Below are positions 2,130 to 49,040 of a stretch of 64,000 nucleotides of DNA, in pieces. The stretch spans positions 4,895,321-4,959,320 of the forward strand of contig OZ244869.1 of NCBI GenBank assembly GCA_965221155.1. The letters run 5' to 3'. The DNA comes from an uncultured Candidatus Binatia bacterium (lineage in GTDB: Bacteria; Desulfobacterota; Binatia; UBA9968; JAJDTQ01). The position numbers were made by a program, and so were the translations under genes. A model generated the notes under the pieces. That model was given only the letters and a program-made list of their open reading frames with translations. It was not told the origin of the DNA and searched no databases. Each line of letters starts with the position of its first letter. The first letter of the stretch is position 1.

Positions 2130-4496
2130 ATGGAAGGCAAGGAGATGGAAGACAGAGAACAACGAGCACCTGAACGAGCCTCCGCTCCGGTTACGGAAGA
2201 TGCGAACAGCGGAGGCGCGGAGAAGAGCGCCGGTCCCGACCCCGAAACTCCCGGCCGGTCTGACCGGCCTTGGGCGCCCGCTGCTGAATCGCCTCGGCCC
2301 ATGAGCGGGGCGCCAGGACCCGGGGATGCCCCGGACGAGAGAGTCGTCGATTCTCCCTGGTGGGAGGGCGGTTCGATGCCTGAAGAGGCGCCCGCTACGT
2401 ACAGGGGGGCGGGGTACATCTACAGGGGAGTGCGGTACGGCGAGCCCGTTCCCGAGCCCAAGTCTCAGCCGCCCCAAGAGCCGGACGACGACGATGACCC
2501 GGTGGACCTGTCCGTGCTGGCCGTGATGTCAGAGGACCAGCCGGCGGTTCCTCCCGCCGAAGGAACCGAGGCGAGAGAACCCTTCGTCGATTCTCCCTGG
2601 TGGGAGGTCGGTTCGAGGCCCGAGGAGACGGCCGACGACGATGACCCGGTGGACACGCCCGTGCTGGCCGTGATGTCAGAGGACCAGCCGGCCGTTCCCC
2701 CCGCCAAAGGAACGGAGGCGAGAGAACCCATCGTCGATTCTCCCTGGTGGGGGGGCGGTTCGCGGTCCGAGGAGACCGCCGAGGAGGAGCCCGATGCCGG
2801 CGGCGGGGAGGTAGCCCCGGGCGCGCCCTATCCGTACAGCGAGCCGGTATACGGCGAGTCCGTTCCCGAGCCCAAGTCCCAGCCGCCCGAAGAGCCGGAC
2901 GACGACGATGACCCGGTGGACCTGTCCGTACCGGCCGTGATGTCAGAGGACCAACCGGCCGTCGCTCCCGCCGAAGGGGGGAAAGCAGCAGAACCCGTCG
3001 TCAGTCCTCCCTGGTGGGGGGGCGGTTCGAGGTCCGAGGAGACGGCCGAGGAGGAGCCCGATGCCGGCGGCGGGGAGGTAGCCGCGGGCGCGCCCTATCT
3101 GTACAGGGGGACGGTATACGGCGAGTCCGTTCCCGAGCCCAAGCCCCAGCCGCCCGAAGAGGTGAACGACGACGATCAGCCGGTAGACATGTCTGTGCCG
3201 GCCGCGCTGTCAGAGGACCAACCGGCCGTCCCTCCCGCCGAAACGGGGGAGGAACACGCCGTGGAAGAGCCCCCGGCCGATCGCGGGGAGCCGGACCGGC
3301 AGCCTCCTGCTTCGCCGGGCGGCTTGTCCGCGGCGACGGAAGCGCTTCCCGAAGGTCCGCCCGGCGAGCTGATTCGCTCGATAGTCGCCGAGGTCTGTCC
3401 CGGCGAACTGCTGCTGGTCGGTACGGACAAAGCCCCATTACCGGAGTGGGCTCGCGCGGCCGTGACCGCGGCCCGCAACGATCTGGACCGGCGCCTGGCC
3501 GAGCGCAAGCCGGTCGATGCCAGAGAGTATCTTCGGCTGGCCATCGTTGAGAACGTCATGGGCCTTCACGAGGAAGCCGACGGTCACCTCAAGGAGGCGC
3601 TGCCGCGGAGCGACCGGTTCGGGCCGGTCCTGAACGCGCTGGCCGTTACGAGCCTGGCGCGGGGAAAAATCGCCCCCGCCATCGTCTACTGCAAGGAGGC
3701 ACTCCGCGAGACCGGCGGAGACGATTCCGTCCGCGCGGCCGCTTCATCCAACCTGGGAGATCTTTACCGTCTTGAAGGAAATACAGACCAGGCGGCTGAG
3801 GCGTACGAGACAGCCATCAAGTGCCTGGGACCGCAGGGGGAGTCTCGCTGGCTCCCGCGGTTGCATTTGCGCGTCGGCCGCCTCTACCGGCGCTTGGGCC
3901 AGACGGACAATGCGCGCCGGCACCTTTCCGATTCGGTCCGGCTGTTCAAGGAGACCGGCGACGAGGCCGGGTACGTCCGGTCCCTCGTAGCGCTTGGCTC
4001 GGCCTTGACCGAGTCGGGCTTGCACGACCTCGCTCTCAGGAATGTCGAAGAGGCGGTCCGGATTTGCCTGAGGACCGGGGACAAGCCCGGCGCCGCGCTG
4101 GTGCAGGACGAGCTGGGGGTGACCTACATGGCCCAGGACCAGTTGACGCGCGCTCTCGCGTATTTCGAAAGCGCCCTTTCGCTTCACCGTGAGTTGGGCA
4201 ACCGCACGGGCGAGGCGGCCACCCTGAGCAACATGGGGAAGATCTACGACTCCCGGGGTGACATCGGCGAGGCGCGGCAGTTCTACGAGGCAGCCCAGGA
4301 GATCAACCGCGAGCAAGGCCACGAGGTCGGCCAGGCCGCGAAGCCGCCGCAACTCGGGGCCGGCGATGAGGAAGGCGCACGGGCCAAGCTTCTGAAGGCG
4401 GAGGAAATCTTCAGCCGCGCCGGTTCGGCGGAACAGCAGGAGGACGCGCGGCAGATGACGGAAAAGCACGGGCCGGGGACCGAGGGTCTTCGGTGA
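2130..4496 (+). CDS. cytoplasmic TPR-repeat protein with N-terminal acidic tandem repeats
   Basis: 788 aa. N-terminal half has ~4 degenerate repeats (DSPWW-GGS ... PEPKSQPPEEPDDDDDPVDLSV-AVMSEDQPAVPPAEG). C-terminal ~350 aa are TPR-like (LGDLYRLEGNTDQAAEAYETAIKCLG; YFESALSLHRELGNRTGEAATLSNMGKIY). No signal peptide. Confidence 0.7.
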   Translation: MEGKEMEDREQRAPERASAPVTEDANSGGAEKSAGPDPETPGRSDRPWAPAAESPRPMSGAPGPGDAPDERVVDSPWWEGGSMPEEAPATYRGAGYIYRGVRYGEPVPEPKSQPPQEPDDDDDPVDLSVLAVMSEDQPAVPPAEGTEAREPFVDSPWWEVGSRPEETADDDDPVDTPVLAVMSEDQPAVPPAKGTEAREPIVDSPWWGGGSRSEETAEEEPDAGGGEVAPGAPYPYSEPVYGESVPEPKSQPPEEPDDDDDPVDLSVPAVMSEDQPAVAPAEGGKAAEPVVSPPWWGGGSRSEETAEEEPDAGGGEVAAGAPYLYRGTVYGESVPEPKPQPPEEVNDDDQPVDMSVPAALSEDQPAVPPAETGEEHAVEEPPADRGEPDRQPPASPGGLSAATEALPEGPPGELIRSIVAEVCPGELLLVGTDKAPLPEWARAAVTAARNDLDRRLAERKPVDAREYLRLAIVENVMGLHEEADGHLKEALPRSDRFGPVLNALAVTSLARGKIAPAIVYCKEALRETGGDDSVRAAASSNLGDLYRLEGNTDQAAEAYETAIKCLGPQGESRWLPRLHLRVGRLYRRLGQTDNARRHLSDSVRLFKETGDEAGYVRSLVALGSALTESGLHDLALRNVEEAVRICLRTGDKPGAALVQDELGVTYMAQDQLTRALAYFESALSLHRELGNRTGEAATLSNMGKIYDSRGDIGEARQFYEAAQEINREQGHEVGQAAKPPQLGAGDEEGARAKLLKAEEIFSRAGSAEQQEDARQMTEKHGPGTEGLR
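2341..3250 (+). repeat. intragenic tandem repeats (~150-260 bp units, 4 copies) encoding the acidic DSPWW repeats
   Basis: Near-identical stretches gattctccctggtggga...gaccagccggc recur at ~2341, ~2581, ~2728 and ~2992 with indels between copies. Confidence 0.7.
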
Positions 4497-6225: not shown

Positions 6226-7941
6226 ATGGTGCCGGAAATCAAGTGGTTCTCCTGGATAGCACGCCGAATGGCGGTGACAGCCGGGCTCACCTTGTCTCTC
6301 GGCGCCTGTGGCGGGTTGCTGGTGGAGGAACGACGCACGGGCCAACTCGGGACGGCGGAGCGGCAGCAGTTGAACAACAGTCTGAATGTAGCGTCGGCGT
6401 CGGCCGATGCCGGCCAGCTCGAGGCCGCGGAGCGGCTGTATACGCAACTCTCCCGTCATTTCCCGAGCGCACCGGAGCCCAAGCTCGGGCTCGCTTACCT
6501 GGCGTTGGAGGCGGGTGACTTCACCCTCGCCGGCAAGCTTTTTGCCGAAGCGGACGAGAGATCAGCAACGCCGGCCGCCAAGGCCGAGGCGCTGCTCGGC
6601 GCGGGCCGGTCGAGCCTTGCAAGGGGCGACAGTGCCGGGGCGAAGACCCATTTTCTCACCGCTTCCAAGCTGGCCAAGGGAACGCCGGCTGAAGCCTGGG
6701 TGGCCAACGGCCTTGGCGTGGTGGCAACTCTCGAGGGCGACCATGCGGGGGCGCGGACGCGTTACGAAGAGGCCCTCACGTTGTCGCCGTCGCATCCGAT
6801 GATCACCGCGAATCTGGTGCGCGCGCTTGCCCAATCGGGCGCGGGAAACGAGGCGAGGCAGCTCTACGCCAAGTACCCCGCTTCCCATTGGTTGGAAGAC
6901 GACGGGGCCGACCTTTCGCGTTTGCTCAAAACCGGGAAAGGAGCCGCTACGGCTTCGGGCGCCCAGGTGCAGCTTTACTCCGCGCGCTCGCGCGACCGGG
7001 CGCTGGACGCCTGGGGCCGGCTCTCCTCGGAGGAAAAGGAGCTGCTTGGCTCTCTGACTCACCGCGTGGTGAAGGCCCAGATTCCGAAGAGAGGTGTGTT
7101 TTACCGCCTCTGGGCGGGTCCCCTGGCGGACAAGGCGGCGGCCAGGCGTCTGTGTGGCCTGCTGAAAGGCCGTGGCCGGGACTGCTTCGTCCTCGCAGGG
7201 AAATGGACCGAGAGCGACGGGGCAGGCGGGGCGGAGGAGAGCCCTGATGCCCAGCCCGGTGGCGCCCCCGAGACCGCGCGCTCCCGGCCGCCCGCGGTCA
7301 CGGCAGAGCCGGCTCGCGAGACGGCTCAAGCCGATACAGCCGCTACGGCTTCGGGCGCCCAGGTGCAGCTTTACTCGGCGCGCTCGCGCGACCGGGCGCT
7401 GGCCGCCTGGGGCCGGCTCTTCCTGGAGGAAAAGGAGCTGCTTGCCTCTCTGACTCACCGCGTGGTGAAGGCCCGGATTCCGAAGAGAGGGGTGTTTTAC
7501 CGCCTCTGGGCGGGTCCCCTGGCGGACAAGGCAGCGGCCAGGCGCCTATGCGGCCTGCTGAAAGGCCGCGGCCGGGACTGCTTCGTCCCCGCAGGGAAAT
7601 GGACCGGGGGCGGCCAAGAGACCGCGGGCTCCCGGCCGCCCGCGGTCACGAACGAACCGTCTCGCGAGGCGCCGGCGGCCGAAGGAGCCGTAGCGGCCAA
7701 GGTGCAGCTTTACTCCGGGCGCTCGCACGACGGGGCGCTGGCCGCCTGGGGCCGGCTCTCCTCGGAGGAAAAGGAGCTGCTCGGCTCTCTGACTCACCGC
7801 GTGGTGAAGGCCGAACTTCCGAAAAGGGGGGTGTTTTACCGCCTCTGGGCGGGTCCCCTGGCGGACAAGGCGGCGGCCTGGCGCCTATGCGGCCTGCTGA
7901 AAGGCCGCGGCCGGGACTGCTTCGTCCCGGCAGGGAAATGA
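6226..7941 (+). CDS. TadD-like TPR lipoprotein fused to three C-terminal SPOR (peptidoglycan-binding) domains
   Basis: Track ORF 6100..7941 begins inside the MITE; the likely start is the ATG at 6226 (MVPEIKWFSWIARRMAVTAGLTLSLGAC, lipobox). ~250 aa of TPR follow, then three ~85-aa repeats (QVQLYSARSRDRALxAWGRL...GVFYRLWAGPLADKAAARRLCGLLKGRGRDCFV) typical of SPOR domains. It sits directly upstream of cpaA and cpaB on the same strand. Confidence 0.6.
   Translation: MVPEIKWFSWIARRMAVTAGLTLSLGACGGLLVEERRTGQLGTAERQQLNNSLNVASASADAGQLEAAERLYTQLSRHFPSAPEPKLGLAYLALEAGDFTLAGKLFAEADERSATPAAKAEALLGAGRSSLARGDSAGAKTHFLTASKLAKGTPAEAWVANGLGVVATLEGDHAGARTRYEEALTLSPSHPMITANLVRALAQSGAGNEARQLYAKYPASHWLEDDGADLSRLLKTGKGAATASGAQVQLYSARSRDRALDAWGRLSSEEKELLGSLTHRVVKAQIPKRGVFYRLWAGPLADKAAARRLCGLLKGRGRDCFVLAGKWTESDGAGGAEESPDAQPGGAPETARSRPPAVTAEPARETAQADTAATASGAQVQLYSARSRDRALAAWGRLFLEEKELLASLTHRVVKARIPKRGVFYRLWAGPLADKAAARRLCGLLKGRGRDCFVPAGKWTGGGQETAGSRPPAVTNEPSREAPAAEGAVAAKVQLYSGRSHDGALAAWGRLSSEEKELLGSLTHRVVKAELPKRGVFYRLWAGPLADKAAAWRLCGLLKGRGRDCFVPAGK
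6943..7941 (+). repeat. three near-identical ~360-390 bp tandem DNA repeats encoding the SPOR domains
   Basis: gccgctacggcttcgggcgcccaggtgcagctttactc recurs at 6943 and 7333; a third diverged copy starts near 7690. Nucleotide identity >90 %. Confidence 0.75.
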
Positions 7942-10426: not shown

Positions 10427-11367
10427 CGTCCGAACCGGGCGGCAATGCCGCGCGCAACCAGCAGCCCCACCACCACGAGCCCGACGCCCCAACGCAACAG
10501 CGTCGGGCTGTCGAGCAGCATTTCGACCGCGTGCGGGTTGGTGAGGCTCTGCGCGCCCATCACCAGCACCGGAACCGCGGACAACACCAGAAGCGTGATC
10601 CGCGTCTGCGCCGTGGAGGCCTGCGCCTTCATCTCCAGCTCCAGCCGGGCGCGCAGCGTCGCCGAAAGATTGCCGAGCGCGGTCGAGATGCCGCCGCCGG
10701 TGGTCCGTTGCAGGCACAGCGCGGCCGAGAACAGCGTGAACTCCGGAATGCGCAGGCGCGCCGCCATTCCGCGCAAAACCACCTCCGGATCGAGGCCGGA
10801 CGAGAGATCATCGGAGACCTGCTTCAGGAGGCTCCCGACCGGTTCCGGCGCCTCCTCGGAGACCACCGAGACGGACTCCACCGCCGGCAGTCCGGCCCGC
10901 GTGAGACGCACGACGTGGTCCACGATCTCGGGGAACTGCTTGACGAACTGCTTGCGCCTCCCCGAATCCCAGATTACGAGAAGGGACCAGCTTCCGGCCG
11001 CCCACGCCGCCGGCGCCAGGATCGGGGCAAGCGTCCCGAACCGGAGGAGGACCGCGGCCACCGCGGCCGCCACCGCCACCAGGAAACCCAGCGCGACCGC
11101 CTTGGAGAACGCCCCGCGGCCTTCGAGCATGCAGAATCGGCGGTCGATCCGCTCGGACACCCAGGACTTGGAGCGCCGGCGGAGGAAGACGCTGGCCTGG
11201 GCATCACCGTCGCCGGCCGCGCCTTCTCCGCCGAGCAGCGCCGCGACCGCGCCCAGCCTGCGCTCGAGGCCCGCCTCCGCCGGCCGACCGCCCAGCCACA
11301 CGACGACCCACGTCCCGGCGACCAGAAACACGCCGGCCGCGGCCGCCACAAACAGCAGCGGGCTCAT
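10423..11367 (-). CDS. tadB: Flp pilus assembly inner-membrane protein TadB
   Basis: Track ORF 10423..11727 trimmed to [16 protein letters not shown] (11365-11367) with GAGGGGG SD; overlaps the cpaF stop. Confidence 0.75.
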   Translation of the reverse strand: MSPLLFVAAAAGVFLVAGTWVVVWLGGRPAEAGLERRLGAVAALLGGEGAAGDGDAQASVFLRRRSKSWVSERIDRRFCMLEGRGAFSKAVALGFLVAVAAAVAAVLLRFGTLAPILAPAAWAAGSWSLLVIWDSGRRKQFVKQFPEIVDHVVRLTRAGLPAVESVSVVSEEAPEPVGSLLKQVSDDLSSGLDPEVVLRGMAARLRIPEFTLFSAALCLQRTTGGGISTALGNLSATLRARLELEMKAQASTAQTRITLLVLSAVPVLVMGAQSLTNPHAVEMLLDSPTLLRWGVGLVVVGLLVARGIAARFGR

Positions 11368-12746
11368 CTCACCCCCTCGGCCTCGTTGTTGCTCATCTGA
11401 AGCACCTCCATCAACTCGGTCCGCAAACCCGCCTTGTCGACCGCCTCCATCCAGGACGGTTGCCGGCCCGTACCCTCGAACTCTCCATCTGTCGTGATGC
11501 GCCACATCTCCTCGGTGATGGCGATGTCGTTCTCCATCCCCACCACGTCGGTGATGCTGGTGACGCAACGCCGGCCGGAACGCAGCCGCGCCACTTGCAG
11601 GACCATGTCGACGCTTGATGCCACCTGCTGGCGTATCGCGGTCAGGGGCATATCCACCGCCCCCATCAAGAGCATGTTCTCGAGCCGCGTGAGCGCATCG
11701 CGGGGGGTGTTGGCATGGATCGTGCACATGGAGCCCGGATGGCCGGTATTCATGGCCTGCAGCATCTCCATGGCCTCCGGGCCGCGCACCTCGCCGACGA
11801 TGATGCGATCGGGCCGCATCCGCAGCGCGTTGATCAAGAGCGCACGCATGGTCACTTCTCCCGTGCCCTCGGCGCTCATGGTGCGCGTCTCCAGCCGCAC
11901 CACGTGAGGCTGTTGCATCTGCAACTCGGCCGCGTCCTCGATGGTGACCAGCCGCTCGTCACTATTGATCTCGCGGGACAGGGTGTTCATCAACGTCGTC
12001 TTGCCGGCGCCGGTGCCGCCGGAGATGAGAATATTCAGACGCGACTTGACGCAGATGCGCAGCAGCCTGGCCATGGTCGGCGAGAGCATCCCCCCCGCGG
12101 CCAGGTCCTTGAGGCTGACGCCGGTCATCAGGAACCGCCGGATCGCGATGGTGGTGCCGTCGATGGCAAGCGGCGGAATGATGATGTTGACGCGGCTGCC
12201 GTCGGGCAGCCTGAGGTCCACCATCGGGCTCGCCTCGTCCACCCGCCGCCCGACCCAGCCCGCGATGCGGTGCGCGATGCGCAGCAGGTGCTGACCGTCG
12301 CGGAACTTGATGTCCACCGGCTCCAGCTTGCCGCGGCGCTCCACGTAAACCGACCTGAGGCCGTTGACGAGAATATCGGAGACGGCCGGGTCATGGAACA
12401 ACGGCTCGAGCGGCCCCAGGCCTTTGATGTCGTTGATCAGGCAAGCCACCACGCGCCGGCGGTCGAGAGGCGTGAGGTCCGGGACTCCGGCCTCCTCGGT
12501 CTCGATAAACGCCTGGAGCTGCGCCGCCAGATCGTCCAGGTTCAGTTTCACGGCCTGCGCCATGTCGACCGCCTTGGCCACGATAGGATGCACCCGCGCC
12601 GCGATGTCGGCGATCATCGCATCCGAGGTCTGCGGACGCAGGGGCACCGCGGCCACGGGAGCCGAGCCCGCGGCGGGGAGCGCGGGCCCCGGGCCCCCGC
12701 CCTCCTCGGCGGCCTTCGGGCGCCGTCCGAAAGATCTCAATGCCAT
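11364..12746 (-). CDS. cpaF: Flp pilus assembly ATPase CpaF/TadA
   Basis: Walker [10 protein letters not shown], Asp box, Walker B and His box ([14 protein letters not shown]); T2SS-E family. AAAGGAGAG SD upstream of the ATG. Confidence 0.9.
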
Positions 12747-12820
12747 CGCGTCTCTCTCCTTTCCGAGTGGACAACGTCCATCCCGAGACCTGGTATCGGC
12801 CGGTGGCGCGGTGCGAGCAC

Positions 12821-13390
12821 GGGCGGGTTTGAAACCCGCCCCTACATCGGATGTCCGGTTCCTACGCCCAGGAGGACGAGGCGTAGCGGGCGGGTCTGAA
12901 ACCCGCCCCTACATCGGATGTCCGGTTCCTGCGCCGCAGGAGGACGTGCCGTAGCGGGCGGGTTTGAAACCCGCCCCTACATCGGATGTCCGGTTCCTGC
13001 GCCGCAGGAGGACGTGCCGTAGCGGGCGGGTTTCAAATCCGCCCCTACATCGGATGTCCGGTTCCTACGCCCAGGAGGACGAGGCGTAGCGGGCGGGTCT
13101 GAAACCCGCCCCTACATCGGATGTCCGGTTCCTGCGCCGCAGGAAGGACGTGCCGTAGCCGGGCGGGTTTGAAACCCGCCCCTACATCGGATGTCCGGTT
13201 CCTGCGCCCAGGAGGACGTGGCGTAGCGGGCGGGTTTCAAACCCGCCCCTACATCGCATGTCCGGTTCCTGCGCCGCAGGAGGACGTGGGCGTAGGGGAC
13301 GGGTTTCAAACCCGCCCCTACATCGCATGTCCGGTTCCTGCGCCGCAGGAGGACGTGGGCGTAGGGGCGGGTTTCAAACCCGCCCGTGCC
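12821..13390. repeat. REP array A: 9 tandem ~69-70 bp units inside the tad gene cluster
   Basis: Unit is GGGCGGGTTT[G/C]AAACCCGCCC + CTACATCGGATGTCCGGTTCCTGCGCCGCAGGAGGACGTGCCGTAGC. The segments between palindromes are near-identical, so these are not CRISPR spacers. Confidence 0.9.
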
Positions 13391-13419
13391 CGCGCCGCGC
13401 TGCAGCGCGATACCAACTC

Positions 13420-14574
13420 CTAGGCCGGCTCCCGGTCCGCGCTGGAGGCGCCGGCCAGCGATACCGTCGGCCTTGTCAAGCTCTCGACCAGGCGGTCGAG
13501 GGCCTTGCGGTAACTCCTGCCGAGGGATCCGTCCGGCGTGCCGCGATTGGTCGCGCCGGGCAGCTTCGGCTCGAACGGTATGGTAAAGTCCGGCTCGCGC
13601 CCGGCCAGCGCATGGCTGATCTGCTTGGGGGCAAGCGCGCTCTTCCGCGCCCGCGTGTGGTTCTCCACCAGGATGGCGTCCCGCCCCTCGCCAAGCAGCA
13701 CGAGGGTGTGCGCCACGTGGTTGAGGCTCACCAGGGTCGGTTCGTAGACCAACACCCGCTCGTCTGCGTTCTCCAGCACCGGAACCAACGTATCGGCGTC
13801 CGACATTCCGTCCACCACCACCAGATGGGAACGATTGGCAAGGTGCTCGGTCAACCACTGGAGCGCGGCGGCGCCGGGCACCGGCGGCACCCCGTCGCCC
13901 GGCCGGTAGCCATAGACCGAGATCCGCGGGCCCGCCGCTGCGCACACGGAGTCGATCATGTCCGAGCCTGCCGGTTCGCCCTCCGCAAGCAGGCCGAACA
14001 ACTCGTCGAGTCCGGCCGCCGGCTCGACGTCGAGCATCCACGGCAGCGCTCCGAACGTCCGATCGAGATCAAGAGCCGACACATAGCTGCCTCGCGCCGC
14101 CGAAGCCTGCACCGTCACCGCGGCCAATGTGGTTGCGCCGCAGCCGCCGCCGCAGCCGGTGAAGGCAATCACCCGGCCGGCGTGCAGGCGTGCCGGGGCG
14201 CCCTCGCCCTCCAGCGCCGTCTTCACCGACTCGCGGATCTCGCGCACCGAGACCGGCTTCGGCAGGTAGTCGTTGACGCCGGTGGTGAGCAGCTCTCGGG
14301 CAAGGCGCGCCGTATCGTTGGATCCAACGGCAATCACCCTGGTGCCGAACTCGCAAACTCCAGCCAGCTCGTGGATGCTGCCGGCGGGGAACTGGGTCCC
14401 GTCGAGATCGACGATCACCACCTGCGGCGATGACGCCCCGGTCAGGTGCTTGATCGCCGCCGCCATGTCACCGCGGTAGACTCCACCCTTCTGGCCGTCC
14501 AACGCCTCACGCAGGACCCGCTCGGTGCCGGCATCGGCAGCGAATGCGCATATGTCCCGATCCTCGCCGTTCAT
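13420..14574 (-). CDS. cpaE: Flp pilus assembly protein CpaE/TadZ (receiver-like N-domain + MinD/ParA-like ATPase)
   Basis: Track ORF 13420..14652 trimmed to MNGEDRDICAF (14572-14574) to avoid a 58-nt overlap with the upstream gene. Deviant Walker A TGCGGGCGATT. Confidence 0.75.
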   Translation of the reverse strand: MNGEDRDICAFAADAGTERVLREALDGQKGGVYRGDMAAAIKHLTGASSPQVVIVDLDGTQFPAGSIHELAGVCEFGTRVIAVGSNDTARLARELLTTGVNDYLPKPVSVREIRESVKTALEGEGAPARLHAGRVIAFTGCGGGCGATTLAAVTVQASAARGSYVSALDLDRTFGALPWMLDVEPAAGLDELFGLLAEGEPAGSDMIDSVCAAAGPRISVYGYRPGDGVPPVPGAAALQWLTEHLANRSHLVVVDGMSDADTLVPVLENADERVLVYEPTLVSLNHVAHTLVLLGEGRDAILVENHTRARKSALAPKQISHALAGREPDFTIPFEPKLPGATNRGTPDGSLGRSYRKALDRLVESLTRPTVSLAGASSADREPA

Positions 14575-14594
14575 TCGGGCAAAACCACCGAGGG

Positions 14595-14918
14595 CTATTG
14601 GCCTGCCTGGAAGGCGGATTCCGGCAACTCCCGCACTTTCCCCTCCGCCCATCGCTGATAGGCTTGATGGAAGGTACCGCGGGAAGCCGCCGGCCGTTGC
14701 GCCGCGCCGGCCTTGAGATTCAACTCGTAGTGGGCCTGGTGATGGACAAGCGAGAGTTGCGCCCAGGCCGCGGCTTGCGCGGCGCTCGACGGGGGGTTGA
14801 CGAAGCTCGCCCGGTCGACGTCAATTGACGACGGCGCGCAGGCTGACAACGACACGACCACCCATCCCGCGGCGGCGAGCCGAAGCGCCCCGGGCGCGAT
14901 TCGCGGAGTTGCGCACAT
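14595..14918 (-). CDS. small lipoprotein in the RcpB/CpaD position of the tad locus
   Basis: Track ORF 14595..15002 begins inside a REP. The likely start MCATPRIAPGALRLAAAGWVVVSLSAC carries a lipobox. Its position between the secretin gene and cpaE matches rcpB/cpaD in canonical tad loci. Confidence 0.4.
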   Translation of the reverse strand: MCATPRIAPGALRLAAAGWVVVSLSACAPSSIDVDRASFVNPPSSAAQAAAWAQLSLVHHQAHYELNLKAGAAQRPAASRGTFHQAYQRWAEGKVRELPESAFQAGQ

Positions 14919-14943
14919 GGTAACGTCTCCTGTCCCCGGAGCC

Positions 14944-14997
14944 TGCGCCGCAGGAACCGGACATCCGATGTAGGGGCGGGTTTCAAACCCGCCCGTG
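14944..14997. repeat. single REP unit
   Basis: gcgccgcaggaaccggacatccgatgtaGGGGCGGGTTTCAAACCCGCCCgtg. Confidence 0.85.
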
Positions 14998-15055
14998 TCC
15001 ACTATCGCCTGGTGGGCCGATACATGCTTCCGGCGTTTCGTGAGTCTTCCACCGC

Positions 15056-16357
15056 TTAATAGCGATAGCCCTGGACGCGGCGGCCCGACGTCCGCTTCTC
15101 TCTATTTTCCGCGCGCGCTTGCGTCGAACCGATGAGCCTCGCCGTGACGACAACGATGAGCTCCGTCGAATTCGAGCGTGACGTCCGCTGGCCGAACAAC
15201 CGGCCCAGCGCCGGGATATCCTTGAGCGCCGGGACGCCGGCTTCCGTCGAATCGCTCTGGTTGCGGTAGAGCCCGGCGATGACGATGGATTCACCGTCCC
15301 CGACCTCGATCGTCGTCTCCGCGCGCCGCACGTCAATGACCGGTATCTCGGTATCGAATATCTTGAGGGAGTCGGTGCCTGCGCGCTGGGACACTTCCGG
15401 CCGCACGGTCAGGGCGATCCGCTTGCTGTTGATCACCGTGGGCACGAAGTCGAGCAGCACGCCGTACTTCTTGTAGTGGAAGGTGATCTGCCCGTCCTGG
15501 ACGCCGCTCGGCAGCGGATACTCACCGCCCGAAAAAAAACTCGCCGTCTCGCCCGAAACCGCAGTGATGTTGGGCCGGGCCAGCACGGTCGCGAGCCCCG
15601 CCGCGGCGAGCGCGTCGATCAAGCCCCGCACCGAAGTAGAACGCGAGGAATGGGACCCGAACAACGCGGACGACTGTCCTTCGGGAAAAATCGCACCGGC
15701 GAACGCGTCACTCACGAGACGTCCCACGCGAAAACCGAACAGGCCGTCTCCACGTTGGCTGAACGCTTCCCAGTTGATACCGAGGGACTCGCTCACGCTG
15801 CGCTGCACTTCGGCGATCTGCACCTCCAGGTTCACCTGCTGCGCGCTCGTGACGGAGATCCGGTTGATCACCGAAGCCTTCTCGGGCAGGGCCGCCTTCG
15901 CCAACTGCAACGCCCGGGCCGCCGCTTCCGCCGACGCCACCACGCCGCTGAGCTCGGCCCCCTGGCCCCGTTGGCGCACCTGAACGTCCCGGAGGTCCGT
16001 GTCTTCCGACAGAGCCGACCGAACCGGCCCCACGTCAAGCGCCACCGTCACCGTCCACCGTCCCACCAGGGCGCCGTCGCTCCCCAGCGCCGCCACCGAA
16101 GTCCGGCCGGCGGCCTTGCCGAACACGAACAGCACCTGCGACGAGACGACCTGCACGTCGGCGGTGGCCGGTTCGGCGACGAACACGGAACCGACGGGTT
16201 TGCCGAGCCGTATCATCCGGCTCTGGCCTACATGAAGGGTCAACGCGGCGCCTCCGCGCGCCTCCTGGCCGTAGCCGCTCTCGGCAAACATAAGGGCCAC
16301 GACGAGCGCAACACTCAGCCGGCACATGACGCGGGCGATGTTCTTCACCCGAAACAT
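15056..16357 (-). CDS. cpaC: Flp pilus secretin CpaC/RcpA
   Basis: Track ORF 15056..16414 trimmed to MFRVKNIARVMCRLSVALVVALMFAESGYGQ (signal peptide). Secretin C-domain (GETASFFSGGEYP ... LIVVVTARLI). Confidence 0.8.
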   Translation of the reverse strand: MFRVKNIARVMCRLSVALVVALMFAESGYGQEARGGAALTLHVGQSRMIRLGKPVGSVFVAEPATADVQVVSSQVLFVFGKAAGRTSVAALGSDGALVGRWTVTVALDVGPVRSALSEDTDLRDVQVRQRGQGAELSGVVASAEAAARALQLAKAALPEKASVINRISVTSAQQVNLEVQIAEVQRSVSESLGINWEAFSQRGDGLFGFRVGRLVSDAFAGAIFPEGQSSALFGSHSSRSTSVRGLIDALAAAGLATVLARPNITAVSGETASFFSGGEYPLPSGVQDGQITFHYKKYGVLLDFVPTVINSKRIALTVRPEVSQRAGTDSLKIFDTEIPVIDVRRAETTIEVGDGESIVIAGLYRNQSDSTEAGVPALKDIPALGRLFGQRTSRSNSTELIVVVTARLIGSTQARAENREKRTSGRRVQGYRY

Positions 16358-19118: not shown

Positions 19119-19744
19119 CGAATTGTCACCGACTCCACCTCGGGTTGGGGCAACCCCACCGTTCGTTCGTTTCGCGCCACCGCCAGCGCACGGACGGTGA
19201 AATCGTCGGCCTGTAGCCTCTGTTTCATCCAGCCAAGCGGCGTCTGGGGCGTGAAGCCCAGGCGCACCACCACCATGTCACCGGCGTCCCCGCCAAGCAG
19301 GCCATTTTCGCCCCCGGACAATTCGCCTAGCAACATCGTCGAGGGGTTGTCGTAGACGTCGATCTCGATCCTCAAGAGATCGGGATCCACGCTGTCCCCT
19401 AGCTCGGCCCGTATTGCCCCCAGTGCCCGCTCAAGCAACTGCTCTTCGGTCTCTGCCGCCTGTTCTTGCAGTGAGGCGTCTCTCGCCACCGCGTGGGCCG
19501 CGCGATCCAGGAGGTCCCTGACGAACAAGGTATTCACGACTTCAAACACGCTACCCGCCACAACCACCATGAAGCAGAGGCTAAAGACGCTCTCCAACGT
19601 CGTCACCGCCTGTCGCGCGGACCAGAAGGACCGCAGGCCTTTCGCCGCCGCCCGGCGACTGCGAACCCTTGCGGGAAGCAATTTGGATGCGAGAGAAGAT
19701 CTGTCAAGACTGTTCACGATTCGCGTTCCGATTTCACTCGTCAA
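19115..19744 (-). CDS. tadF: TadE/TadF-like pseudopilin
   Basis: Hydrophobic N-terminal segment TLESVFSLCFMVVVAGSVFEVV. First gene of the minus-strand tad operon. Confidence 0.5.
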   Translation of the reverse strand: MTSEIGTRIVNSLDRSSLASKLLPARVRSRRAAAKGLRSFWSARQAVTTLESVFSLCFMVVVAGSVFEVVNTLFVRDLLDRAAHAVARDASLQEQAAETEEQLLERALGAIRAELGDSVDPDLLRIEIDVYDNPSTMLLGELSGGENGLLGGDAGDMVVVRLGFTPQTPLGWMKQRLQADDFTVRALAVARNERTVGLPQPEVESVTIR

Positions 19745-19800
19745 TTTGACGATACGCCAACAAATTTACAAGATAAGGACAAGTTGACGATATACGTAGT

Positions 19801-19817
19801 TAGCATGAATCGTGCCA
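19801..19817 (-). promoter_or_regulatory. candidate sigma-54 (-24/-12) promoter of the tad operon
   Basis: Minus strand reads TGGCACGattcATGCTa against the consensus TGGCAC-N5-TTGCW. It lies ~55 nt upstream of the tadF start and 190 nt downstream of a palindromic enhancer-like site; an NtrC-type activator is encoded immediately upstream. Confidence 0.45.
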
Positions 19818-19990
19818 CTAGGGCGGGATACGGATAAGTTAATGCAAATCGGGTAGTTGGGGAGATACCCGCGTGGCGACCGGACGCCTTTGTAGTGTTG
19901 CAGAACTATCGAGCGAGGGAGCGGGCGACCTTCAGAAATGGGCCACAACCCCTTGATTATTCATCATTTATACAAGAAACCGGAGAAATT

Positions 19991-20023
19991 GTTGCAGTTT
20001 GCAACAAAGTTGCAAACTGCAAC
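19991..20023. promoter_or_regulatory. perfect 15-bp inverted repeat with 3-bp spacer (GTTGCAGTTTGCAAC-AAA-GTTGCAAACTGCAAC): candidate enhancer/UAS for the sigma-54 activator
   Basis: Read directly from the sequence. An AT-rich, bendable segment lies between this site and the -24/-12 element. Confidence 0.45.
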
Positions 20024-20046
20024 ATGCGCGCGCCAAAGTGTCAGGT

Positions 20047-21912
20047 TCAGTCCTTGGCGAGCAGGCCGTATTTCTTCAGTTTCCGGTGCAGGGTCACCCG
20101 GTCGATGCCCAATGCCCGGGCCGCCTGCGTGATGTTGTTGCCCGAGGCTTCGAGCGCTTGGGCCAGCGCCCGCCGCTCGACTTCCACCAGCGGCCGGACC
20201 GACGCCGGTGTGGAGTGATCGCTTGAGGAAACATGGGGCAGGAAGAGCTGGGGCGGGAGGCTGTCCGCTTGCAGCACGTCGGTCTTCTCCAACAGAACGG
20301 CGCGCTCGATTGCGTTTTCGAGCTCGCGCACGTTGCCGGGCCAATCGTACTGGAGCAACAGACGCAACGCCGCGGTGGAGATGCCGCTCATGGATCGATC
20401 GCTGCGTTCGGCGTATTTCTTCAGAAAATGGTTGGCCAGCAAGGGAATGTCTTCACGATGCTGCCTGAGCGGCGGCATCACGATGGGGAACACAGCGATG
20501 CGATAGAACAGGTCTTCCCGGAACTCCCCCACCTTGACCGCAGCCTCCAGGTCCTTGTTGGTCGCCACGATCACCCGGATGTCGACGGGGACGGTGACGG
20601 CGCCACCCACTCGCTGGATTTCCCGCTCCTGCAGCACCCGCAACAGCTTGGCTTGCAGCGCCGGCCGCATGTCGCCGATCTCGTCGAGGAGGATCGTTCC
20701 CCCCTTGGCGCGCTCGAAGGCGCCGATTCTCTGCCTCGTCGCCCCGGTGAAAGCCCCCCGTTCATGGCCGAACAACTCACTTTCCATGAGCGCCTCGGGA
20801 ATGGCGGCGCAGTTGATGGCCAGAAACGGCCCATCTTTCCGCGGGCTGTTGAAGTGGAACGATTTTGCCACCAACTCCTTGCCGGTCCCGCTCTCGCCCT
20901 GGAGCAGCACCGTAATGTCGCTTTCCGCGGCCTGCCTCATCAGCGCGTACACCTGCTGCATGGGAGGGCTGGCGCCTACCATGCCGTCAAAGGAGTAGGC
21001 CGTCTCCAGCTCGGCGCGCAAGCGCAATACTTCCACCTTCATCCGCTCTGCCTCCACCTCCTTGGATACGTCCCGGTACACATGGAGGCTGCCCATGACC
21101 TCTCCCTGACCGTCATGCACCGGCGCAGTCTTTCGATAGAACAGCCGCTGTTCCGGCACGGTACCCGCGGCGCTTTCCTCCCCCAGGGCGCCGCCCTCCT
21201 TGAAGATGAACCTGCCCTCGACGTCGGGCAGGTCCGGCTCCCGGAACCGTTCCCGGAACTGCGCCGCGAGCGCATCCGGCGAGAGCTCCTTCAACTCGTT
21301 TTCCGTCAGGTCGGACAACTTCTCGTAGCCTCGATTGGCGAACACCAGGTGCCCGGTGAGGTCGTACATGGCCATGGCCTCCCCGGTGGTGTTGAGCACG
21401 GCTTCCAGCCTTTGATGGCCGATGGCAAGCTGCCGCCGTTTCTCCGCCAACTCCTGCTCGACGTTCCACTTGCCGACCAGGGACAGCGTGATCTGCTGGA
21501 TCTCCTCGCGGGCGAAGGGCTTTCGGATATAGAGCGTCTTGTGAAGCAGATCCACTTTCTGGATGATCTCGGGCAGAGACCTGTCGGTGTAAGCGGTCAT
21601 GATGACGAACTCGACCTCGCGGTCGACCTCTCTCATACGGCGGATCGTTTCGATACCGTCGACGCCCGGAGGCATTCGGATGTCGATGTAGGCAACGGCA
21701 ATGGGACGGTCCCATTCCTTTCCAGCTCTCACGATCTCGCAGGCTTCCTCTCCGTTCCTGGCGTGAAGCAACTGGAACTCCGGCGGAAAGGACCGCTCTT
21801 CCTCGACGACGAACGCGGCCGCCAGCTCCGACGCCGCCAACAGTTGCGGTTTCAACATTTCTCTAAAGTCGTCGTGAATCTCTCTCTGGTCATCGACGAC
21901 CAAGACGCGCAT
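20047..21912 (-). CDS. sigma-54-dependent response regulator (REC-PAS-AAA+-HTH, NtrC family)
   Basis: Track ORF 20047..21942 trimmed to MRVLVVDDQ. Walker [15 protein letters not shown] motif, C-terminal HTH ([24 protein letters not shown]). Confidence 0.85.
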
Positions 21913-27088: not shown

Positions 27089-27643
27089 GTGACTCCCGGC
27101 GCCGTACGTTTCGCCCAAGCCGCCCTGGTAGGGGACTCCGACCCTCCGGGGCATACCCTGGCGCTGGCGGAGCACGCCGGCGAGATGCTGGGGCGCCGCG
27201 GCATCACCCTGGTCACCGGCGGCCGCGGTGGAGTGATGGAAGCCGCCGCCCGTGGAGCCGCCCGGGCCGGCGGCCTGACCGTGGGGATCACCCCCGGCAC
27301 CGACACGAACTCGGCCAACCCCTGGTGTGACATCGTCCTGCCCACCGGCCTGGGCCACGCCCGAAACGTCCTGACGGCGCTGGCCGGCGACTTCATCGTG
27401 GCCGTGGGCGGCGGCGCCGGCACCCTCTCCGAACTGTGCTTCGGATGGGTCCACGGACGGCCCATCTACGTCCTGCAGGGATCGGGAGGATGGTCGGACA
27501 GGCTCGCCGGCGGCGCGCTGGATCACCGAGCCTCTTCGGTCATCGTCACCTGCGACGGCGTCGAAGCGCTGGAACGCGAAGTGGTACGGTTCTGCGCCGC
27601 GAAGGAGCTCAGGATCAGAGAGCCGGACGGACGTCCTATGTAG
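27089..27643 (+). CDS. TIGR00725 / LOG-like Rossmann-fold protein
   Basis: GTG start with AGGAAGG SD. Motif LVTGGRGGVMEAAARGAARAGGLTVGI ... GGGAGTLSE. The stop codon is supplied by the adjacent REP flank (atgTAGgggcggg). Confidence 0.55.
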   Translation: MTPGAVRFAQAALVGDSDPPGHTLALAEHAGEMLGRRGITLVTGGRGGVMEAAARGAARAGGLTVGITPGTDTNSANPWCDIVLPTGLGHARNVLTALAGDFIVAVGGGAGTLSELCFGWVHGRPIYVLQGSGGWSDRLAGGALDHRASSVIVTCDGVEALEREVVRFCAAKELRIREPDGRPM

Positions 27644-28874: not shown

Positions 28875-29290
28875 TTCACGAACGCGGACGGGTTTGAAAC
28901 CCGCCCCTACATCCGCCTCTCCGGACCTGGCGAGGAATGGTCGGACATTGGTCCCCGTCCTGTCCGGCCGGGACGCGCCAAGGCGGACGGCGGGGGGTGT
29001 TTTCGCCCGGTGGGCGCGTGGGAACGCGATGCCTGGCGACTTCGCCTTGCATGAACGTGGTGCATGTAGGGGCGGGTTTCAAACCCGCCCGTACATCCCC
29101 CTCTCCGGACCTGGCGGAATGGTCGGACGTTGGTCCCTGTCCTGTCCGGGCTGGGGACGCGTCAACGCGGACCGCCGGTGGTGTTTTCGCCCGTTGGGCG
29201 CGTGGGAACGCGATGTCTGGCGACTTCGGCATGCACGAACGTGGTGCATGTAGGGGCGGGTTTCAAACCCGCCCGTGTACAAGATTAGCG
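28875..29290. repeat. REP array B: 2 x ~190-bp composite units (3 REP cores), 5' flank of the RAYT gene
   Basis: REP cores near 28875, 29067 and 29254; the intervening 170-bp segments are >90 % identical. Confidence 0.85.
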
Positions 29291-29312: not shown

Positions 29313-29855
29313 ATGAACACGCACCGTGACACGAACCAACCTGCACGCCGCTCCATCCGGCTGCGTGGTTTCGACTATGCCCAACAGGGGGCCTATTTCG
29401 TGACCATCTGCACGCACCAACGCGCATGCCTGTTCGGTGAAATCGCGGACGATGAGATGCGATTCAACACAACCGGGAGCGTGGCACACGGCGTGTGGAT
29501 GGGACTACCCACGCACTATCCCCACGTTGAGCTGGATGCCTTCGTCGTGATGCCGAACCATGTCCACGGCATCGTCGTCCTGGGATCAGGCATCCAACCG
29601 ACGCCCGTGAAGCTAGAGTCCCTGTCGGAGATCATTCGGGGATTCAAGACCTTCTCGGCTCGCCAAATCAATCGGTCACGGTCCAGGCCGGGAAACCGTG
29701 TGTGGCAACGCAACTACTACGACCATGTCATCCGCGATGAAGTCGGCCTCGACCGAATCCGGCAATACATCGTGGACAACCCGGCCCGCTGGGCGGAAGA
29801 TCCGGAAAACCCGGCCCGTCGGTCTGACGGGCGCGGGCGGGACCAAGGCGGGTGA
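29313..29855 (+). CDS. REP-associated tyrosine transposase (RAYT; IS200/IS605-like Y1 HUH)
   Basis: HUH motif MPNHVHGIVVL; catalytic Tyr region RVWQRNYYDHVIRDEVG; N-terminal FDYAQQGAYFVTICT. Flanked by REPs in opposite orientation. Confidence 0.85.
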   Translation: MNTHRDTNQPARRSIRLRGFDYAQQGAYFVTICTHQRACLFGEIADDEMRFNTTGSVAHGVWMGLPTHYPHVELDAFVVMPNHVHGIVVLGSGIQPTPVKLESLSEIIRGFKTFSARQINRSRSRPGNRVWQRNYYDHVIRDEVGLDRIRQYIVDNPARWAEDPENPARRSDGRGRDQGG

Positions 29856-29884
29856 CCGGTCCTACACCAACGCGGCTGCCGGCC

Positions 29885-30810
29885 CGAGCGCGGGCGGGTT
29901 TCAAACCCGCCCCTACGTCCGCCTCTCCGGACTTGGCGGAATGGTCCGACGTTGGTCCCTGTCCGGGCCGGGGCCGGGGACGCGCCAATGCGGACCGCCG
30001 GGGGTGTTTTCGCCCGGCCTGCCGGCCAGCGCGCGGGCGGGTTTGAAACCCGCCCCTACAATCGCCTCTCCGGACCTGGCGGAATGGTCGGACGTTGGTC
30101 CCTGTCCGGGCCGGGACGGGGATGCGTCAATGCGGACCGCGGGTCGTGTTCTCGCCCGGCCTGCCGGCCAGCGCACGGGCGGGTTTGAAACCCGCCCCTA
30201 CGTCCGCCTCTCCGGACCTGGCGGAATGGTCGACGTTGGTCCCTGTCCGGGACGGGACGGGGATGCGTCAATGCGGACCGCGGGTCGTGTTCTCGCCCGG
30301 CCTGCCGGCCCGTGCGCGGGCGGGTTTGAAACCCGCCCCTACAATCGCCTCTCCGGACCTGGCGGAATGGTCGGACGTTGGTCCCTGTCCGGGCCGGGAC
30401 GGGGATGCGTCAATGCGGACCGCGGGGGGTGTTCTCGCCCGGCCTGCCGGCCAGCGCACGGGCGGGTTTGAAACCCGCCCCTACGTCCGCCTCTCCGGAC
30501 TTGGCGGAATGGTCGGACGTTGGTCCCTGTCCGGGCCGGGACGGGGATGCGTCAATGCGGACCGCTGGGGGTGTTTTCGCCCGGCCTGCCGGCCAGCGCA
30601 CGGGCGGGTTTGAAACCCGCCCCTACGTCCGCCTCTCCGGACTTGGCGGAATGGTCGGACGTTGCGCCCTGTCCGGGACGGGGCCGGGGACGCGTCAATG
30701 CGGACCGCGGGGGGTGTTTTCGCCCGGTGGGCGCGTGGGAACGCGATGCCTGGCGACTTCGCCTTGCATGAACGTGGTGCATGTAGGGGCGGGTTTCAAA
30801 CCCGCCCGCG
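29885..30810. repeat. REP array C: 6 x ~142-bp composite REP units plus one 190-bp unit, 3' flank of the RAYT gene
   Basis: REP cores at ~29891, 30035, 30178, 30317, 30460, 30602 and 30786. Unit is REP + CTACGTCCGCCTCTCCGGACCTGGCGGAATGGTCGGACGTTGGTCCCTGTCCGGGCCGGGACGGGGATGCGTCAATGCGGACCGCGG...CCGGCCAGCGCACG. Many track ORFs here are translations of the repeat. Confidence 0.9.
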
Positions 30811-45230: not shown

Positions 45231-45698
45231 TCAGGAGAGCTCTTGGCTCAAGCTCGCCATTTCAATGGCAGTGACGGCAGCCTCGAATCCCTTGTTGCCC
45301 ATCTTCGCCCCGGCGCGATCGACGGCCTGCTCCACCGTGTTGGTGGTCAACAGGCCGAAGGCAATGGGGATACCGTGCTGGTTCATGGCATTGCCCACCC
45401 CTCGCGAGGCTTCACCGCAGATATAGTCGAAATGGGGCGTGTCCCCGCGAATAACGGCCCCGACACATATCAGCGCGTCGTACTTGCCGCTTTTCGCCAT
45501 CTTGTGGGCGCAGAAGGAAATCTCGAAGGCGCCGGGGACCCACACCACGTCCACGTGCTCGTCCGTGTCCGCCCCGTGCCGCCTCAGGGCGCTCACCGCG
45601 CCGTCGAGGAGCCGCTCGGTAATGAAGCCGTTGAACCGGCTGGCGATGATGCCGAACCTCATTGCCGTGGCGTCCAGTTTTCCTTCGATCACTCGCAT
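45231..45698 (-). CDS. ribH: 6,7-dimethyl-8-ribityllumazine synthase
   Basis: MRVIEGKLDATAMRFGIIASRFN...VVWVPGAFE. Confidence 0.9.
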   Translation of the reverse strand: MRVIEGKLDATAMRFGIIASRFNGFITERLLDGAVSALRRHGADTDEHVDVVWVPGAFEISFCAHKMAKSGKYDALICVGAVIRGDTPHFDYICGEASRGVGNAMNQHGIPIAFGLLTTNTVEQAVDRAGAKMGNKGFEAAVTAIEMASLSQELS

Positions 45699-45717
45699 GG
45701 CCGGCACCTTCAGTGGG

Positions 45718-46938: not shown

Positions 46939-47026
46939 GTCTTGTGTCGAGCGTCCTGTCAGGTTGATTGGGTTGGCAATTCGCTGGTGTCTTGGATACG
47001 CCGGCCGCGTCGTTCGTGCCGCCGCG

Positions 47027-47047
47027 CGGGCGGGTTTGAAACCCGCC
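47027..47047. repeat. single REP (ribBA-ribE intergenic)
   Basis: GGGCGGGTTTGAAACCCGCCCctacagg. Confidence 0.85.
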
Positions 47048-47048
47048 C

Positions 47049-47660: not shown

Positions 47661-47700
47661 GGGCTGGTTCCTCACCCCGAATGCATACACCCTCGTGTAG

Positions 47701-47721
47701 GGGCGGGTTTCAAACCCGCCC
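47701..47721. repeat. single REP (ribE-ribD intergenic), inverted relative to the one at 47027
   Basis: gtgtaGGGGCGGGTTTCAAACCCGCCCgtgccc. Confidence 0.85.
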
Positions 47722-47788
47722 GTGCCCGGCCCCCCCACCGGAGCCTGCGGCTCGAAGCCGGAGCCTCGAGGTTCATGCGCTTCGAAGC

Positions 47789-48886: not shown

Positions 48887-48920
48887 CCCTTTGTCGAGGG
48901 AGCCGGCCTCGTTCCGTCCC

Positions 48921-49040
48921 AAATTTAACCCCTCTCCCTCTGGGAGAGGGTGGCCGAAGGCCGGGTGAGGGCGCCACAACAACTCTGCCCGCTCCGAAGC
49001 ACCCTCACCCCGACCCTCTCCCGGAGGGAGAGGGGGTCGG
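48921..49040. repeat. two CCCTCTCCC...GGGAGAGGG-type hairpins between nrdR and ribD; the first is followed by an AT-rich tail (terminator-like)
   Basis: cccctctccctctgggagaggg...gttaaattt on the minus strand; and gaccctctcccggagggagagggggtc. A third family member is at 51196-51228. Confidence 0.4.

Follow-up and report, generated by a model that had tools for sequence, protein, structure and literature searches.

A tandem array of REP hairpins between cpaE and cpaF in a Candidatus Binatia tad operon, probably an amplified REPIN tolerated by the operon

Introduction

The genes of the tad (Flp) pilus operon of an uncultured Candidatus Binatia bacterium are tightly packed except at one place, between cpaE and cpaF, where a long gap is filled with stable hairpins. 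These hairpins form an array of repetitive extragenic palindromic (REP) elements, and the question raised by the locus is whether the array is a working part of the operon or has only settled there. The locus lies in a 64,000-nucleotide stretch of contig OZ244869.1 (assembly GCA_965221155.1), referred to below as the window; coordinates are those of the window unless a comparison locus is named. We think it very probable that the array is a tandemly amplified REPIN (a REP doublet forming a hairpin) of a GTAG-tagged REP family, that this family is associated with a REP-associated tyrosine transposase (RAYT), and that the array reflects REP proliferation that is tolerated rather than a need of the operon. 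Judged by the sequences of related genomes, it is a recent, lineage-specific insertion and not a conserved regulatory part of the tad operon.

Anatomy of the Array

The array and its two ends are as follows.

12820-13385, no strand: tandem REP array (Tandem Repeats Finder, pattern search and unit dissection)
12821-12841, minus strand: terminal REP on the cpaF side, reading CAC-hairpin-CTAC on the plus strand (oriented flank listing)
13365-13385, plus strand: terminal REP on the cpaE side, GTAG-hairpin-GTG, 34 nt from the cpaE stop codon

Tandem Repeats Finder describes the array as 8.3 copies of a 68-bp period, with 93% matches and a score of 942. Dissection into units gives nine copies of the 21-nt palindrome GGGCGGGTTTSAAACCCGCCC, starting at 12821, 12888, 12956, 13024, 13091, 13161, 13228, 13297 and 13365, with eight spacers of 46-49 nt between them. 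The initial annotation had proposed a REP array of nine units of about 70 bp, which is right for nine hairpins with eight spacers. The DNA gained at this place goes beyond the array, to 630 bp, and takes in the stop codon of cpaE.

The inner hairpins have GTAG on one flank and CTAC on the other. The REPs at the two ends, 12821(-) and 13365(+), are an inverted pair with their GTAG tags pointing inward and their GATAC-ended extensions pointing outward; this boundary pair is a tail-to-tail doublet, as in a REPIN. The spacers are of a single type and nearly identical (0-6 differences among the eight), and a 47-nt spacer is made of two 5' tails that meet in a small palindrome at its centre.

Three other classes of repeat were considered and rejected. 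The near identity of the eight spacers excludes a CRISPR array, and no cas genes were seen among the nearby genes examined. A coding repeat is incompatible with the 68-bp period and the spacer identity; as the unit period of 67-70 bp is not a multiple of three, no single frame is carried from unit to unit. A repeat like the mycobacterial interspersed repetitive units (MIRUs) was dismissed because cpaE ends at a TAG ahead of the first hairpin and no open reading frame (ORF) runs through the units.

A Dispersed REP Family and Its Presumed Transposase

The palindrome is not confined to the tad operon. It occurs 32 times in the window and not once in 100 dinucleotide-preserving shuffles, and a pattern search places nine of the 32 matches in the array; the tad array is thus one local concentration of a dispersed family. 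The element has an orientation: a 5' tail, (T)GTAG, GGGCGGGTTTCAAACCCGCCC, GYG and, in many copies, a 3' extension of about 25 nt that ends in GATAC (...CGGNCGATAC). Several copies have the common 5' tail CTGCGCCGCAGGAACCGGACATCCGAT. Among the oriented single or terminal REPs, (T)GTAG lies directly 5' of the stem in 22 of 22, with GYG opposite in all but a few, and the full string TGTAG-GGGCGGGTTTCAAACCCGCCC-GYG is found in 21. The central loop base, C or G, tracks the orientation in 21 of these 22 copies, being C when GTAG is 5'.

All 32 REPs are intergenic; they occupy about 15 sites, none within a gene, at 0-95 nt from a stop codon, and they occur in both orientations relative to transcription. 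At 27641-27643 and 47049-47051 the GTAG of a REP donates the TAG stop of the neighboring gene. Such properties (intergenic position, both orientations, nearness to stop codons, TAG donation) are textbook for GTAG-tagged REPs (PMC3733652). Further inverted pairs are found at 36913/37043, 56487/56544, 28886/29070 and 30602/30787. A second REP site inside the operon is occupied by one full-length element, with 5' tail, GTAG, hairpin and a 3' extension ending in GATAC:

14942-15023, plus strand: single full-length REP (hairpin 14974-14994) in the gap between cpaC and the lipoprotein gene, antisense to the operon mRNA

A REP was defined as an imperfect palindrome of 20-40 bp that forms a stable stem-loop. 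The family has the short palindrome or stem-loop, the GTAG tag, dispersed extragenic copies, doublets and a RAYT gene with inverted REPs, and the label REP array in the initial annotation is therefore apt. No Rfam family reached its gathering score anywhere in the window, and a literature search with the REP core sequence returned unrelated primers only.

The two genes that receive their stop from a REP in the window are an SLOG-family gene (27089-27643) and a riboflavin synthase-like gene ending at 47049; in two comparison loci, L009 (9509-9511) and L003, the cpaE stop is likewise the TAG of a REP's GTAG. The window also holds at least three types of unit built around the same REP core, of 68 bp (tad), 184 bp and 142 bp; the latter two have only the hairpin in common with the tad unit. 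Arrays of these two flank a transposase gene, which was located through its position between REP arrays and its Pfam match.

29313-29855, plus strand: RAYT gene, 180 amino acids (Pfam, NCBIfam, motifs and homolog names)
28886-29274, no strand: REP array upstream of the RAYT gene, period 184 bp, 2.1 copies
29876-30807, no strand: REP array downstream of the RAYT gene, period 142 bp, 6 copies, with a terminal inverted REP at 30787

The ORF matches Pfam Y1_Tnp (PF01797) with 30.5 bits (cutoff 23), and its best NCBIfam model is NF047646, "REP-associated tyrosine transposase" (E=2e-21). Its translation contains the HUH motif PNHVHGIVV and the tyrosine motif RQYIVDNPARW, and several of about 8,000 homologs are named "REP element-mobilizing transposase RayT" in their source. 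The final REP of the upstream array (29254, plus) ends 38 nt before the RAYT start codon and the first REP of the downstream array (29892, minus) begins 36 nt past the stop codon. The gene is 16 kb from the tad array.

An ortholog with 75% identity is present in L009 (14238-14762, the same as L084 4001-4525), directly downstream of tadC; it too has inverted REPs on both sides, GTAG outward, and is embedded in REP arrays. The REP-RAYT association therefore holds in two genomes, and the different location of the gene in the window means that it occupies different chromosomal positions in related genomes. The convergent gap in which the L009 gene sits is only 54 bp long in the window. Presumably, this RAYT is the mobilising enzyme of the REP family.

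The Junction in Related Genomes

The comparison loci come from uncultured Candidatus Binatia genomes found by a CpaF search (L001 is OZ244617.1 and L009 is OZ253480.1). The order of the tad genes is conserved across 11 Binatia loci. Trees of cpaF-tadB-tadC and of cpaE both give (L082,(L083,((window,L001),L009))), with L002, L081/L003 and L004 outside; L001 is the closest relative, at 4.9% DNA divergence from the window. The cpaE-cpaF junctions are listed below, with a slash at insertion boundaries.

12793-13422, minus strand: whole inserted DNA relative to the ancestral junction, 630 bp, from the empty junctions of L001, L002 and L083 against the occupied ones of L009 and L082
Window junction: these 630 bp inserted exactly after CCGGCC
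L001, L083 and L002 junction: 43 bp, REP-free, ...CCGGCC/CAGGTTTCGGGATGA, then the ribosome-binding site
L009 junction: inserted where the window has its insert and sharing its cpaF-side boundary (GATAC/CAGGTCT); an array of 109 bp x 4; the GTAG of a REP supplies the cpaE stop
L082 junction: one degenerate antisense REP, cpaE-side boundary as in the window (CCGGCC/TAGGAG)
L003 junction: REP relic after ...GACTCGTAG
L081 junction (sister of L003): GTAG present, hairpin absent

The 630-bp insert comprises the array, the two outward REP 3' extensions, which end in GATAC, and the TAG at which cpaE now stops. It directly follows the ...CCGGCC (Ala) of cpaE, and the ancestral CAGGTCTCGGG resumes past the array. 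The four ancestral terminal codons of cpaE (QVSG) and its TGA stop have been replaced by the insert.

Short, REP-free junctions are found in L001, L083, L002, L081, L004-L006 and L067, and most Binatia loci have about 40 bp at this place. Three other lineages (L009, L082 and L003) have differing REP structures at exactly the position of the insertion in the window. As occupied and empty junctions are interleaved on the tree, at least three events are needed, and the sequences would fit either repeated insertion at one position or one old insertion followed by precise losses. The initial annotation had proposed a comparison with orthologous tad loci lacking the array. Such loci exist, the closest relative among them, and the absence of the array from them counts against a selected or strong role for it.

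L081 and L003 differ by about 30 nt of REP relic immediately 3' of their common ...GACTCGTAG, which is either an excision footprint in L081 or a pre-insertion target. The string AACCCGCC at the empty site of L001 was considered as a REP footprint and rejected; it encodes Glu-Pro-Ala and is also present in the window and in L083.

The gap between cpaC and the lipoprotein gene has a similarly variable history. In the window it contains the single REP and in L009 a 142-bp array; L003 and L081 have relics there, L082 and L004 have no REP, and L001 keeps only the 3' extension, beside a rearrangement. The count of REP hairpins in the tad region is 11 in the window, 18 in L009 (in 21 kb) and one in L001. 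The L009 operon contains four REP arrays, with periods of 142, 109, 132 and 137 bp. In L001, positions 6690-6760 (approximately), after cpaC, hold only the REP 3' extension GTATCGGCCCGCCAGGCGAAGCGGAC, followed by a TadG-like gene that the window lacks at this place; a rearrangement seems to have had its breakpoint at a REP hairpin.

Origin and Growth of the Array

The units record how the array may have grown. Spacers 6 and 7 are identical, as are 5 and 8, and between spacers 1 and 2 there is a single difference. Units 5 and 8 also share a private hairpin variant, CAGACCC, which together with the identical spacer indicates the duplication of a three-unit (203-bp) block. These variants fit recent growth through unit and block duplications.

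The REP core reads almost the same on both strands, and a doublet's two inverted REPs therefore count as direct repeats too. If recombination between them were unequal, or if replication slipped from one to the other, each event would add one hairpin plus spacer, giving GTAG-hairpin-CTAC hybrids and a growing array. Both bases occur at the loop centres of the array (plus strand: G G G C G G C C C), a mixture to be expected if some recombination events broke the sequence before the loop and others after it. The presence of the array at this place would follow from REPs proliferating and being tolerated just downstream of stop codons.

Could the array, or its copy number, be an artefact of assembling a repeat-rich metagenome-assembled genome? 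The source appears to be such a genome, and assemblers handle tandem repeats of 93% identity poorly, which could make the copy number wrong. However, the units carry distinct, ordered variants instead of a collapsed consensus, a relative whose genome was assembled independently bears an array of its own at this junction, with the cpaF-side boundary in common, and similar arrays lie beside the RAYT gene in two assemblies. An artefact is thus extremely unlikely.

A bolder suggestion is that the cpaE-cpaF junction is a site-specific RAYT/REPIN target (3' of CCGGCC, 5' of CAGG), hit or precisely vacated at least three times in one clade, and that the arrays, whose copy number changes easily, let evolution set the ratio of secretin and CpaE to the ATPase and platform proteins as if by a dial. 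We regard this as a long shot. If it were true, one would have a natural system in which the insertion of REPINs, their precise excision and the expansion of arrays could be linked to an operon phenotype open to measurement.

The tad Operon and Possible Effects on Its mRNA

The two genes that flank the array are these.

13420-14652 (likely start 14571), minus strand: cpaE (tadZ-like), from PDB, NCBIfam and ortholog alignments
11364-12746, minus strand: cpaF/tadA secretion ATPase (Pfam T2SSE, E=1.5e-63; NCBIfam TadA family, E=3.5e-100)

The longest ORF of cpaE encodes 410 amino acids, and the likely true start is the ATG at 14571 (MNGEDRDI...); ortholog alignments begin at residues 21-34 in most loci. 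The N-terminal domain of CpaE matches PDB entries 4n0p and 4myr, both "Pilus assembly protein CpaE" (E=1.7e-9), and the C-terminal half matches CpaE/ParA-type ATPase models of NCBIfam. Upstream are genes for a lipoprotein (ATG 14917, lipobox LSAC), the CpaC secretin, the Flp pilin (AMEYAIIVG), a TadG/VWA-like protein and a TadE-like protein; downstream of cpaF are TadB and TadC (T2SSF, Pfam). All components of a tad/Flp operon are thus present and co-directional (Pfam, NCBIfam, PDB and the Flp motif). The initial annotation had placed the array between cpaE and cpaF of a tad operon with this gene order, compact and partly translationally coupled, and all of this is borne out: cpaF and tadB overlap by ATGA, the gap between the lipoprotein gene and cpaE is about 23 nt, and the one long gap is the 673 untranslated base pairs between cpaE and cpaF.

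Folded as mRNA, this gap has a minimum free energy of -464.6 kcal/mol against -318 for shuffles (z = -17.5). A single hairpin with its GTAG/CTAC extension folds as RNA at -22.8 kcal/mol (z = -5.0) and a REP doublet at -66.7 kcal/mol (z = -8.9). As a side effect of REP proliferation, the polycistronic tad mRNA would therefore contain about 600 nt of very stable structure. Judging by E. coli REPs, this would most likely stop exonucleases that degrade 3'->5', and RNase III may find substrates in the long helices, while read-through would still be allowed; the upstream flp-cpaC-cpaE segment would be favored over cpaF-tadB-tadC in steady-state mRNA, with cpaF keeping its own ribosome-binding site. 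That the array affects the stability or processing of the mRNA is made plausible by the analogous malE-malF gap of E. coli, where a REP structure protects the upstream mRNA (PMC5927463).

The initial annotation had also considered partial termination at the hairpins. Another reading is that the array splits the operon: the upstream transcript would be terminated and cpaF-tadB-tadC would be transcribed from a new promoter in or just after the array. The length of the untranslated gap and the Shine-Dalgarno sequence of cpaF itself (AAGGAG, 12756-12761), 74 nt past the last hairpin, would suit such an arrangement. However, a scan of both strands over 11300-15100 found no hairpin followed by a U run (the array hairpins are followed by CUAC or GCUAC instead), and a scan of the same region for sigma-70-like promoters found none, although the promoter consensus of Binatia may differ. 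The mRNA strand has about as much C as G (231 vs 227) and is heavily paired, which would make Rho loading unlikely. In addition, the REP of L082 lies right against the ribosome-binding site, so that no promoter would fit between them, and the ancestral 43-bp gap implies co-transcription. We consider a split operon very unlikely.

The genes downstream of the array give no sign of suffering from it. In all of the array-bearing genomes cpaF, tadB and tadC are full length, and the ratio of nonsynonymous to synonymous substitution rates (dN/dS) for cpaF is 0.13-0.22 in every pair, with or without the array, a sign of purifying selection. This ratio was read for cpaF only; the values for TadB and TadC are inflated by over-long ORF calls. 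Nine junctions that are REP-free or hold a relic fold like shuffles (z from -2.3 to +1.3). The array thus neither silences cpaF-tadB-tadC nor replaces an ancestral hairpin, and both polar silencing of the downstream genes and a substitution of REPs for a conserved junction stem-loop were rejected.

There remains the reading, close to that of the initial annotation, that the array is a selected regulatory module that lowers cpaF-tadB-tadC expression, or uncouples it, relative to pilin, secretin and CpaE, with copy number as a tuning knob. REP-derived structures at this junction in four lineages, with at least three architectures, speak for it, as does the very stable predicted RNA structure; in L009 and L003 a REP abuts or supplies the cpaE stop codon. 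Liang, Rudd and Deutscher reportedly found in 2015 that an E. coli REP within about 15 nt of a stop codon reduces translation of the upstream gene. The malE-malF element provides a further precedent (PMC5927463). On the other hand, the short junctions listed above do without REPs and have no more structure than shuffles; arrays of the same REP family also stand at sites that have nothing to do with this junction, both in the window and in L009; lineages differ in the copy number, period and orientation of the repeats; and the cpaF ratios reveal no constraint specific to array-bearing lineages. A selected module is therefore unlikely. As the array is missing from L001 and most loci, the genes are intact and no terminator or promoter was found, any effect of the array would be a lineage-specific by-product of REP proliferation.

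Several points weigh against our preferred reading, the tolerated amplification of a REPIN. The RAYT scores 76.4 bits against NF047646, just under the curated cutoff of 80, and a phmmer search of solved structures gave no RAYT match. The case for its action on these REPs is indirect and comes from presence/absence polymorphism of REPs at orthologous sites among genomes that are 5-15% diverged. The window holds a RAYT gene, and so its REP density may be atypical of the genome. The recombination model is drawn from the shape of its product, and RAYT-mediated processes could also build arrays. The effect on the transcript is argued by analogy, and the occupation of the same junction in four lineages could hint at selection over neutrality.

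Likeness to Known Systems

The closest parallel is provided by Pseudomonas, where tandem REPIN clusters of this size occur, often beside RAYT genes (PMC3116915). The clusters of P. fluorescens SBW25 (Bertels and Rainey 2011, PMC3116915) and the Binatia arrays are both extragenic, are largest beside the RAYT gene and undergo excision or turnover between strains. The Binatia system differs in its host phylum, in its divergent RAYT, in the conserved 3' extension of about 25 nt ending in GATAC and in its mobility, which is presumed. In addition, its REP core is almost a perfect palindrome, and so neighboring doublets share one hairpin (the 68-bp unit), unlike those of SBW25.

Members of the GTAG-tagged REP superfamily (Di Nocera et al. 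2013, PMC3733652) resemble the Binatia REPs in having GTAG at one end of a GC-rich stem of 6-9 bp, in their frequent tail-tail dimers, tandem clusters, donation of TAG stop codons and RAYT association, and in copy numbers that vary strongly between close relatives. Arrays also flank an exopolysaccharide (EPS) gene cluster in Thauera (PMC3733652). The likeness to the superfamily, with its 24 family consensus sequences, is one of features. The survey lists Proteobacteria, Cyanobacteria, Chloroflexi and the Planctomycetes-Verrucomicrobia-Chlamydiae (PVC) group, and not Binatota (PMC3733652).

The malE-malF REP element of E. coli also lies in an intercistronic operon gap, downstream of one or more genes needed in higher amounts, and it shields the upstream mRNA from 3'->5' exonucleases (PMC5927463; Newbury et al. 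1987, as cited in PMC7509114). However, the E. coli effect was measured whereas that in Binatia is inferred, and the E. coli element is conserved among enterobacteria whereas the Binatia array is missing from the nearest relative.

Bacterial interspersed mosaic elements (BIMEs) consist of REPs of alternating orientation with defined linker motifs, some of which bind integration host factor (IHF) or gyrase. In the Binatia array, GTAG and CTAC tags alternate around shared palindromic cores, and its sequence is unrelated to E. coli REPs. Mycobacterial MIRUs are tandem repeats of 40-100 bp between operon genes, with copy numbers that vary between strains, and contain short ORFs overlapping the stop and start codons of the flanking genes. 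The array resembles them in being tandem and intercistronic within an operon, but its period is 68 bp, it lacks a through-ORF, it is palindromic and it is associated with a RAYT.

The Binatia RAYT shares its Pfam family (PF01797) with the Y1 HUH transposases of the IS200/IS605 group and is likewise flanked by hairpin-bearing ends. The seamless insertion, at one defined position and with no obvious target duplication, and the apparently precise empty sites of some relatives fit "peel and paste" single-strand chemistry. However, the Binatia elements are hairpins only tens of bases long, non-autonomous and present in a great many copies, and do not amount to complete insertion sequences, and NCBIfam favors the RAYT model over the IS200 model (E=5e-5).

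Significance and Other Observations

These results document a complete REP/REPIN-RAYT system in Candidatus Binatia, with an element definition, a transposase gene, doublets and tandem clusters. No paper in the literature searched links Binatia with REPs or REPINs, and such systems appear to have been undescribed in this phylum until now. For REP biology, the locus offers an orthologous junction series (empty, relic, single REP, 4 x 109 bp and 8 x 68 bp) in genomes that are 5-20% diverged, which could serve to examine insertion specificity, precise loss and array growth. The array brings to light no new principle in the regulation of tad pilus operons; its recurrence at the same site is the only feature that a specialist might follow up.

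For annotation, REP arrays explain several long, repeat-filled "gaps" in these genomes, and long ORFs called across them should be treated as artefacts. Examples of long spurious ORFs through REP arrays are 13112-14041 (minus), 11715-12899 (plus) and 13121-13423 (plus) in the window and 4522-5493 in L084. The public annotation of L009 contains a 323-amino-acid "gene" without a Pfam match that was seemingly called across an array.

The window also contains a riboflavin cluster at 45231-49249 (ribD-like, riboflavin synthase-like and ribBA-like genes, read from their translations alone), with REPs in its gaps at 47028 and 47701. No flavin mononucleotide (FMN) riboswitch was found at the Rfam gathering score anywhere in the window. 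Other tandem repeats are present at 2471-3250, with periods of 147 and 267 bp and 87-89% identity; they lie inside an ORF (2130-4496) and are apparently coding, and repeats of 255-264 bp that resemble them occur in L001 at 19400-20400. Finally, a 414-bp tandem repeat unrelated to the REPs lies downstream of the tad genes in L009 (16499-17998, 3.6 copies, 98%) and in L001 (14794-15915, three copies).

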